Part shown: positions 3,736 through 4,553 of the stretch, piece by piece | How positions within the stretch are numbered: position 1 is the first letter of the stretch | How the letters are laid out: every line of letters starts with the position of its first letter | Source of the DNA: Nanobdellota archaeon | Lineage (GTDB): Archaea > Nanobdellota > Nanobdellia > Woesearchaeales > JAHWHD01 | Length of the DNA stretch: 33,306 bases | Reading direction: 5' to 3' | Assembly: GCA_034722435.1 (NCBI GenBank) | Contig: JAYENX010000039.1 | Span: 1-33,306, forward strand | Notes under the pieces: generated by a model | What the model saw: only the letters and a program-made list of their open reading frames with translations | What the model was told of the DNA's origin: nothing | The model's database searches: none | Made by a program: the position numbers and the translations under genes

Positions 3736-3751
3736 TGGGGCTACTGGGATT
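3736..3751 (-). repeat. Distal copy of the tRNA-Trp 3' end (att-like direct repeat)
   Basis: TGGGGCTACTGGGA at 3736-3749 is identical to 4481-4494 (18/19 over 3731-3749 vs 4476-4494); minus strand 3751-3736 reads AATCCCAGTAGCCCCA = nt 58-73 of the spliced tRNA. Confidence 0.9.
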
Positions 3752-3803
3752 ACCACTGGACACTGGACAACCGTGGTTAAATTATATATATTCAATTGTA
3801 TAT

Positions 3804-3811
3804 TTTAAATA
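3804..3811 (+). promoter_or_regulatory. TATA-like box for a probable leaderless LAGLIDADG transcript
   Basis: TTTAAATA about 23 nt upstream of TTG at 3834; no RBS seen. Confidence 0.4.
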
Positions 3812-3833
3812 TTATGTTATTTTGTGATTTAAA

Positions 3834-4553
3834 TTGAATAATAATAATAATAATAATAATAATAATTTAATTATCCCTCTTGATTTTACATGCAATCTTG
3901 CAGAATTTGTTGGAATACATTTTGGTGATGGTTCTATGATTTATGGTCCTAATTATAAATATCGGGTTGCTTATGCTTGTAACTTAAATGAGGTTGATTA
4001 TGTAGAGTATTTTCAAAATTTGTTTTATGAATTATTTAATATTAAGTTAAAAAAAACATTATACTTTAAAAAGAATTGTATTGAATTATATTATTATTCT
4101 AAAAAGTTTTGTGAATATATGATTAATGTATTACAAGTTCCTTCTGGTAGAAAGACTAATTTGATTATTCCTCAATATATTCGGTCTAATAGATTATTAA
4201 CAATTGCTTTTCTTAGAGGTCTTTTTGATACTGATGGTTGTTTAACTGTTCAGCGAGATGGGAAATATAAGTATCTTCTTGCTAAAATAACTACTTCACT
4301 TCCTGATTTTGCATATTCAATTTCTAAATTGTTAAAATCTCTTAATATACATTGTTTTGTTACAAAGAAAGGAAAACATAATCCTGGCTGTGATGTGGTT
4401 ATAAGGCATTTGAATGTTATTGAATTTTTGAATCTTGTTAAGCCTGTGAATTCTAAATATTATAGAAAAATGGGAATGTATGGGGCTACTGGGACTTTCG
4501 GAGTAAAGCTTTTTGATCGTTTGACCTTTTGCTTAAACTGTTCGAATTTCTGA
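3834..4553 (+). CDS. Free-standing two-motif LAGLIDADG homing endonuclease (intein/DOD-like)
   Basis: Motif 1 LAEFVGIHFGDGS, motif 2 FLRGLFDTDGC, both with the acidic catalytic position; no intein splicing termini; start uncertain (TTG, no in-frame ATG before motif 1). Confidence 0.9.
   Translation: MNNNNNNNNNNLIIPLDFTCNLAEFVGIHFGDGSMIYGPNYKYRVAYACNLNEVDYVEYFQNLFYELFNIKLKKTLYFKKNCIELYYYSKKFCEYMINVLQVPSGRKTNLIIPQYIRSNRLLTIAFLRGLFDTDGCLTVQRDGKYKYLLAKITTSLPDFAYSISKLLKSLNIHCFVTKKGKHNPGCDVVIRHLNVIEFLNLVKPVNSKYYRKMGMYGATGTFGVKLFDRLTFCLNCSNF
3837..3866 (+). repeat. (AAT)10 microsatellite encoding poly-Asn
   Basis: Ten perfect AAT units directly after the TTG. Confidence 0.95.
4495..4540 (-). other. 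tRNA intron 3 (59/60, 46 nt)
   Basis: BHB: central helix TTCG/CGAA, bulges AA|C and AG|T, outer helix = T-stem, intron hairpin AGT..AAGC/GCTT..ACT with one extra C. Confidence 0.85.

Follow-up and report, generated by a model that had tools for sequence, protein, structure and literature searches.

What does it mean when a tRNA gene interrupted by three introns lies tail-to-tail with a gene for a homing endonuclease, and a piece of the same tRNA is repeated on the far side of that gene? The question arises in a stretch of 33,306 nucleotides from a Nanobdellota archaeon (the window, by which the whole stretch analysed is meant), whose genome comprises 1.3 Mb with 33% GC, with named homologues mainly from Woesearchaeota and Nanoarchaeota. 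A first-pass annotation had regarded the repeat as the relic of an intronless allele and proposed that the T-loop intron next to it interrupts the target of the endonuclease and protects the resident tRNA gene, as in the collaborative homing of phages. The reading favoured here, with moderate confidence, is that of an integrase-free homing cassette, whose enzyme would cut tRNA-Trp DNA and whose own allele would be shielded by an intron, although a different one from that first suspected.

The tRNA-Trp(CCA) gene occupies 198 bp of the minus strand (4678-4481) and was parsed by hand into four exons (4678-4640, 4589-4575, 4546-4541 and 4494-4481), which give a mature product of 74 nt that ARAGORN calls as tRNA-Trp once spliced. 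On the unspliced window, the gene was missed by both ARAGORN and Rfam because of the three introns that it holds. A TATA-like element, read from the sequence, is found some 30 bp upstream (4706..4713, minus strand), and it is aligned and conserved in the sister cassette of another genome (L023). All three introns lie on the minus strand: intron 1 (4590..4639, 50 nt) at the canonical position 37/38 with a relaxed bulge-helix-bulge, intron 2 (4547..4574, 28 nt) at position 53/54 with strict bulge-helix-bulge geometry, and intron 3 (4495..4540, 46 nt) at position 59/60, where the first-pass annotation had rightly placed it. A bulge-helix-bulge can be drawn at each of them, with a predicted 4-bp helix between two 3-nt bulges per junction, and their excision in silico restores the canonical cloverleaf of tRNA-Trp(CCA). 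Since the T-stem itself forms the outer helix of intron 3, intron 2 is presumably spliced out first. The host genome is intron-rich: among the 28 tRNA genes whose T-arms were found in it, 17 carry a 59/60 intron, and intron 2 is the sole 53/54 intron.

The convergent neighbour of this gene is a free-standing two-motif LAGLIDADG gene (3834..4553, plus strand; 239 aa; PF14528, E 1e-9), whose last codons are antisense to tRNA exon 4, intron 3 and exon 3 and whose reading frame stops within intron 2. Its LAGLIDADG motifs correspond to residues 27-33 and 129-135, the catalytic acidic residues D32 and D134 are unchanged across 26 homologues, and the predicted fold is a two-domain alpha/beta saddle (model pLDDT 87) with I-Tsp061I, I-AniI and I-DmoI as best Foldseek matches. 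Judged by sequence and modelled fold, the protein has what is expected of a monomeric LAGLIDADG homing endonuclease, and the dN/dS of 0.27 between it and the L023 enzyme points to purifying selection. The 14 best genome matches (L028-L041) all adjoin a tRNA-Trp gene, 12 of them tail-to-tail and two upstream in tandem, and remoter relatives adjoin other tRNA isotypes; the clade itself appears to be tied to tRNA-Trp. An enzyme scoring as a member of it occurs in about 8 of the 401 genomes of the order. As a separate observation, the window enzyme has TTG as its start codon and contains an (AAT)n run that gives it ten Asn residues (window:3828-3866), so that the gene may be decaying or down-tuned; the L023 gene begins with ATG behind a ribosome-binding site that is stronger, and its N-terminus is normal.

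The distal copy (3735..3751, minus strand) comprises T60-A73 and one flank base in identical form (15 nt), with AA before T60 and ancestral flank thereafter. Read as tRNA, the minus strand from 3751 to 3736 is identical over 16 nt to positions 58-73 of the mature tRNA-Trp, exactly as first reported. Since its 14-nt core occurs just twice in the 1.3-Mb genome, the repeat is not due to chance. Downstream of it, about 45 bp correspond to the tRNA-Trp 3' flank of a congeneric, unpublished genome (G001) in which the site is empty, and the distal copy is therefore very probably the 3' end that the resident gene once had, displaced by 745 bp. The cassette would end just past the promoter box of the enzyme gene, given that the distal copy and the ancestral flank begin beyond it. 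The notion of a relic of an intronless allele thus survives as a leftover 3' end of the resident allele, whereas the intronlessness of that allele hangs on a single base. Of the 2 nt of extra match, suspected at the outset of being fortuitous, only one is diagnostic (A59), because the unspliced gene has AG before T60 and both the distal copy and the spliced tRNA have AA, the A at -2 fitting the spliced and the unspliced gene alike. The suspicion itself was sound: with A making up 38% of the stretch, the base carries almost no information, and AA also closes 2 of 22 natural 59/60 introns. The match ends at position 57 and does not reach the 53/54 junction.

Eight such leftover copies are found at enzyme loci, and their starts are ragged: about position 52 (L028), 55 (L123), 57 (L328), 58 (the window), 60 (L030, L120 and L036) and, in L034, inside a 59/60 intron. 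The expectation that distal repeats match spliced junctions is borne out by three of the eight, namely the window, L123 (over 5 nt) and L328 (over 3 nt), but not by the other five: L028 and L034 carry intron sequence, their leftovers deriving from alleles with a 59/60 intron and their live genes having none, and L030, L036 and L120 fit neither state. Most enzyme loci have no distal copy. Between the two repeats of the window no integrase or recombinase was found, the LAGLIDADG gene being the only gene there, and this, together with the ragged leftover ends, would fit break repair better than site-specific recombination. Another candidate, in which the whole stretch of about 790 bp is a single giant 59/60 intron holding the enzyme, was rejected: the live tRNA gene is complete without the distal exon, as it would not be beside an intron-encoded endonuclease, and the helix at the distal junction is poor. 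In the sister cassette (L023, 2408-2430) there is no clear distal copy, only TAATCC and scattered matches 6 nt past the box, possibly a decayed copy, and its far flank is unlike those of the window and G001. Two enzyme-free tRNA-Trp genes (L204 and L013) have a short duplicate of their 3' end 50-90 bp downstream, possibly the scars of lost cassettes.

At the far end of the cassette lies the promoter of the enzyme gene (3753..3788, plus strand), formed by a tandem CACTGGA box (3753-3770), which starts three bases from T60 of the distal copy, and a TATA element (3783-3788). The CACTGGACA box recurs at a fixed spacing upstream of a TATA element at 10 sites of the genome against none in shuffled sequences: in the window and on contigs C15, C20, C23 (two), C36, C41, C45 (two) and C58 of the same assembly (G000). 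The genes behind it comprise the radA operon, lhr, a Cas4-like gene, an RNase_H_2-family gene, two Bro-N genes and both LAGLIDADG genes of the genome. The box is conserved across the order (30 of 41 genomes) and is present upstream of 20 of 27 tail-to-tail enzyme genes, four of the 27 having no usable upstream DNA. From this distribution, it looks like the mark of a DNA-repair regulon of which the enzyme genes have become members. The GC-rich stretch beside the distal copy was also considered as the relic of another T-loop intron, a candidate rejected on the grounds that the stretch is this very box, with its 10 genome sites. The second LAGLIDADG gene (L109, G000:C23:33514-34218), preceded by the same box, lies upstream of a three-intron tRNA-Gln(TTG) gene and in tandem with it. 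Literature searches, of incomplete coverage, returned no description of the tRNA-Trp enzyme family or of the promoter box.

Is the cassette a mobile unit, and did an intron move with it? In G001 (unpublished), the same upstream permease and the same 3' flank enclose a tRNA-Trp gene with a 59/60 intron, without enzyme gene and without 53/54 intron; the enzyme gene is, then, optional, is not embedded in an intron or intein and is missing from the corresponding site of relatives, as would be expected of a free-standing homing endonuclease gene. The L023 enzyme is intact and 80% identical to that of the window, and the live tRNA-Trp gene beside it is nearly identical as well, including introns 1 and 2 (27 of the 28 nt of the latter), while intron 3 is precisely missing. 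Synonymous divergence (pS) between the window and L023/L024 is 0.33 for the enzyme vs. 0.73 for the neighbouring host permease, and the three hosts compared (those of the window, L024 and G001) lie at roughly equal distances from one another, with permease identities of 74-77% and pS of 0.73-0.83. The lower value of the enzyme and the near-identity of the tRNA indicate, for this one host pair, that the block from the tRNA gene to the box moved after the hosts had split, that is, lateral spread with co-conversion of flank. The transfer between congeneric species would have been direct or via a shared donor, and intron 2 appears to have travelled with the enzyme, which makes it a candidate for a protective, co-transferred intron. 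Intron 3 is probably a gain after the arrival of the cassette, the alternative being its loss in L023. That the cassette is optional, that it was transferred as a block, that the end of the resident gene was left behind and that the enzyme is under selection and locked to tRNA-Trp is, taken jointly, very likely on these comparisons. The tRNA-Trp locus occurs in this way in a natural series of three states, namely empty, with a cassette lacking intron 3 and with a cassette that includes it, and it offers an instance of a tRNA intron crossing between species alongside an endonuclease gene. Behind the old tRNA flank, the window encodes a 597-aa protein without Pfam match (window:1888-3681), and G001 has at the same place a 514-aa gene whose start does not align with it, which suggests a variable slot behind tRNA-Trp. 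Elsewhere in the order, a single contig bears two separate intronless tRNA-Trp genes (L371 and L372, G225:C1), unusual for such small genomes.

Which introns accompany the enzyme was assessed by comparing 27 non-redundant tail-to-tail enzyme loci, gathered by similarity to the window protein, entries with protein but no DNA being left outside the counts, with 139 enzyme-free tRNA-Trp genes of the order, found with a pattern that misses genes with some D-loop introns; L324 was taken out of this background after a broader profile had found a divergent LAGLIDADG gene beside it. The 53/54 intron is present at 10 of the 27 enzyme loci vs. 6 of the 139 enzyme-free genes and the 45/46 intron at 6 vs. 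2, so that one or the other occurs at 16 of 27 (13 of 22 after merging sister rows) vs. 8 of 139; P values overstate these differences, since kin are not independent. There is no intron between 44 and 54 at the remaining 11 enzyme loci. The 59/60 intron is not enriched (2/27 vs. 24/139, P 0.26), and the enrichment seems specific to intron position and not a matter of intron load. The expected co-occurrence of T-loop introns with adjacent LAGLIDADG genes hence fails for 59/60 and holds, without being obligate, for 53/54 or 45/46, which preserves the first-pass idea of a partnership between a T-arm intron and the enzyme, but not with intron 3 as the partner. Introns at 53/54 and 45/46 are scattered over the enzyme tree (about eight and five separate branches, respectively), and in four families (f1, f117, f44 and f101) an enzyme-bearing genome has one of them and its enzyme-free relatives do not; f1 involves the unpublished G001, and f117 the genomes G300 and G181, flagged as unpublished, the G300 locus agreeing with public record JAHWIM010000053.1 wherever the two were compared. 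In a fifth family (f38), enzyme-bearing and enzyme-free genomes are alike without such an intron. A post hoc comparison adds that the commonest T-stem allele (CTGGG) never lies uninterrupted beside an enzyme (0/27 vs. 48/139 enzyme-free), although the reading frame of one protein for which there is no DNA (P0030) may extend across a CTGGG arm that is not interrupted; judging by the leftover copies, alleles with different T-stems had been invaded as well.

Not every 53/54 intron has an enzyme next to it. A genome-wide pattern search for them was noisy, 12 of 30 inspected matches being tRNA genes (among them L375, L376, L388-L392, L394, L398 and L399), and 10 of these 12, three of them tRNA-Trp, have no enzyme gene within 1.5 kb. 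Seven of the 12 are tRNA-Trp or tRNA-Phe, both targeted by clades of the enzyme family, in which a bias of the pattern may have a part. The possibility that the sequence family of the 53/54 intron is private to enzyme loci was weakened by similar introns in enzyme-free tRNA-Trp and tRNA-Gly genes.

How might the cassette work? In it, a tRNA-Trp allele is joined to a convergent two-motif LAGLIDADG gene whose promoter was taken from the radA-type repair regulon of the host, with which the enzyme would be expressed. On arrival, the tRNA copy of the cassette very probably replaced the resident one, and the trimmed 3' end of the latter was left beyond the promoter box. The enzyme would cut tRNA-Trp DNA at about positions 44-56, an interval that runs from the variable loop into the beginning of the T-loop and lies upstream of every leftover fragment, these starting at about 52-60; the predicted target is in this manner narrowed to about 20 bp. 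The allele of the cassette would escape through the 53/54 intron (as here) or the 45/46 intron, or else through a changed T-stem in members with neither, and donor-templated repair would copy enzyme gene and intron together, thereby giving 53/54 and 45/46 introns a route of spread. As a package, cutting in this interval, escape of the own allele and joint copying by repair are considered slightly more likely than not. The broader proposal, that the 45/46 and 53/54 introns of Woesearchaeota are immunity devices of isotype-specific free-standing LAGLIDADG genes and are carried by them from species to species, is put forward tentatively, its chances being a little short of even.

Of the other explanations, the one that survives best, though it is unlikely, accepts the homing element as real and takes the 53/54 and 45/46 introns as non-protective, either riding along or left as repair scars near the cut, with immunity coming from base changes or tight promoter control instead. 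It would account for the 41% of enzyme loci without either intron, for the many 53/54 introns (the majority) without adjoining enzyme, for intron 1, which was co-transferred too with no sign of protection, and for the regulated repair-type promoter in nearly all cassettes. However, pure riding should enrich every intron position, 59/60 included; the introns that are enriched come back on many branches of the enzyme tree, and no enzyme locus shows the commonest T-arm in unbroken form. An origin as scars and a role in protection would, besides, be compatible with each other. Quite improbable is the view of the enzyme as a domesticated DNA-binding or nuclease factor of the repair regulon, parked by another element at a tRNA integration hotspot, the association with introns merely reflecting intron-rich hosts. 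The promoter box, which the radA operon, lhr and further genes of repair type also have, the purifying selection and the intron-rich host would agree with it, but a domesticated factor would hardly be so sparse in the order, have moved between species and be tied to a single tRNA type; moreover, no integrase lies between the repeats, and the enrichment follows the position of introns and not their load. The weakest alternative is the original one, in which intron 3 interrupts the target and protects and the distal copy stems from an invaded allele without it: the A at position 59, the short spliced-type matches of L123 and L328 and the probable absence of intron 3 when the cassette arrived speak for it, but it is very improbable in view of the intact L023 enzyme beside a gene without intron 3, the 25 of 27 enzyme loci with no 59/60 intron, the invasion of L028 and L034 despite one, the distal copies of L030, L036 and L120 that do not fit the spliced junction, and the frequency of such introns genome-wide, even at the empty site. 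Intron 3 appears to be a bystander.

The closest precedent of the favoured cassette model is the collaborative homing outlined for cyanophage psbA, in which a free-standing endonuclease and a group I intron lacking an ORF share the same target (Zeng, Bonocora and Shub 2009; reviewed in PMC3984707 and PMC2988022). As there, the window enzyme adjoins a gene with an ORF-less intron, both seem to have moved jointly, and the intron would break the target. Unlike there, the setting is an archaeal chromosome, the enzyme is of the LAGLIDADG type and the intron is a 28-nt, protein-spliced bulge-helix-bulge tRNA intron; the window family has two alternative intron positions and many intronless members. 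By analogy, the locus resembles collaborative homing with a tRNA-type intron, 11 of the 27 loci being without such an intron. SegB of phage T4 (PMC2330249) is likewise free-standing and encoded among tRNA genes; it recognises the motif of the tRNA T-loop and, by intronless homing within a tRNA gene cluster, spreads both itself and the tRNA genes next to it. In contrast to the window clade, SegB is a phage-borne GIY-YIG enzyme whose site is degenerate and which lacks an intron partner; the clade is bound to a single isotype, and a duplicate of the tRNA 3' end stays behind. The fold with two motifs and the size of the enzyme are those of the monomeric archaeal enzymes I-Tsp061I (2dch) and I-DmoI and of intein endonuclease domains (7qsu), but these lie within rRNA introns or inteins, and the window gene lies outside the intron and on the opposite strand.

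Among integrative elements, those of the SSV1 and pNOB8 type and the Caldiarchaeum tRNA-Thr(GGU) locus, for which intron delivery by a mobile element with a recombinase has been proposed (PMC3293823), also supply an intron-bearing tRNA copy and leave a fragment of the old gene, and the intron has been proposed to block further invasion of archaeal tRNA genes (PMC3293823), as in the model for the window. The window differs from them in that it has no integrase or recombinase and that its family shows ragged leftover starts (about 52-62) and no fixed att core. The multi-intron tRNA genes of Thermoproteales carry non-canonical introns whose mechanism of movement is stated to be unknown (PMC4090602); the window gene is like them in its three bulge-helix-bulge introns, two of them non-canonical, and unlike them in that one intron is linked to a candidate mobilising enzyme.

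If the model is true, protein-spliced tRNA introns would be partners in collaborative homing on a cellular chromosome, with the DNA-repair regulon of the host setting its timing, and there would be a concrete route at the DNA level for the gain of tRNA introns. The locus also bears on an idea attributed to Randau and Soll, according to which tRNA genes are said to be shielded by introns, except that here it is the invader that would profit from the shield. The association with tRNA genes would extend across domains, because remote relatives of the enzyme, in records mostly titled Patescibacteria, are encoded upstream of tRNA-Ser genes (L048, L084, L092, L099, L101 and L105).
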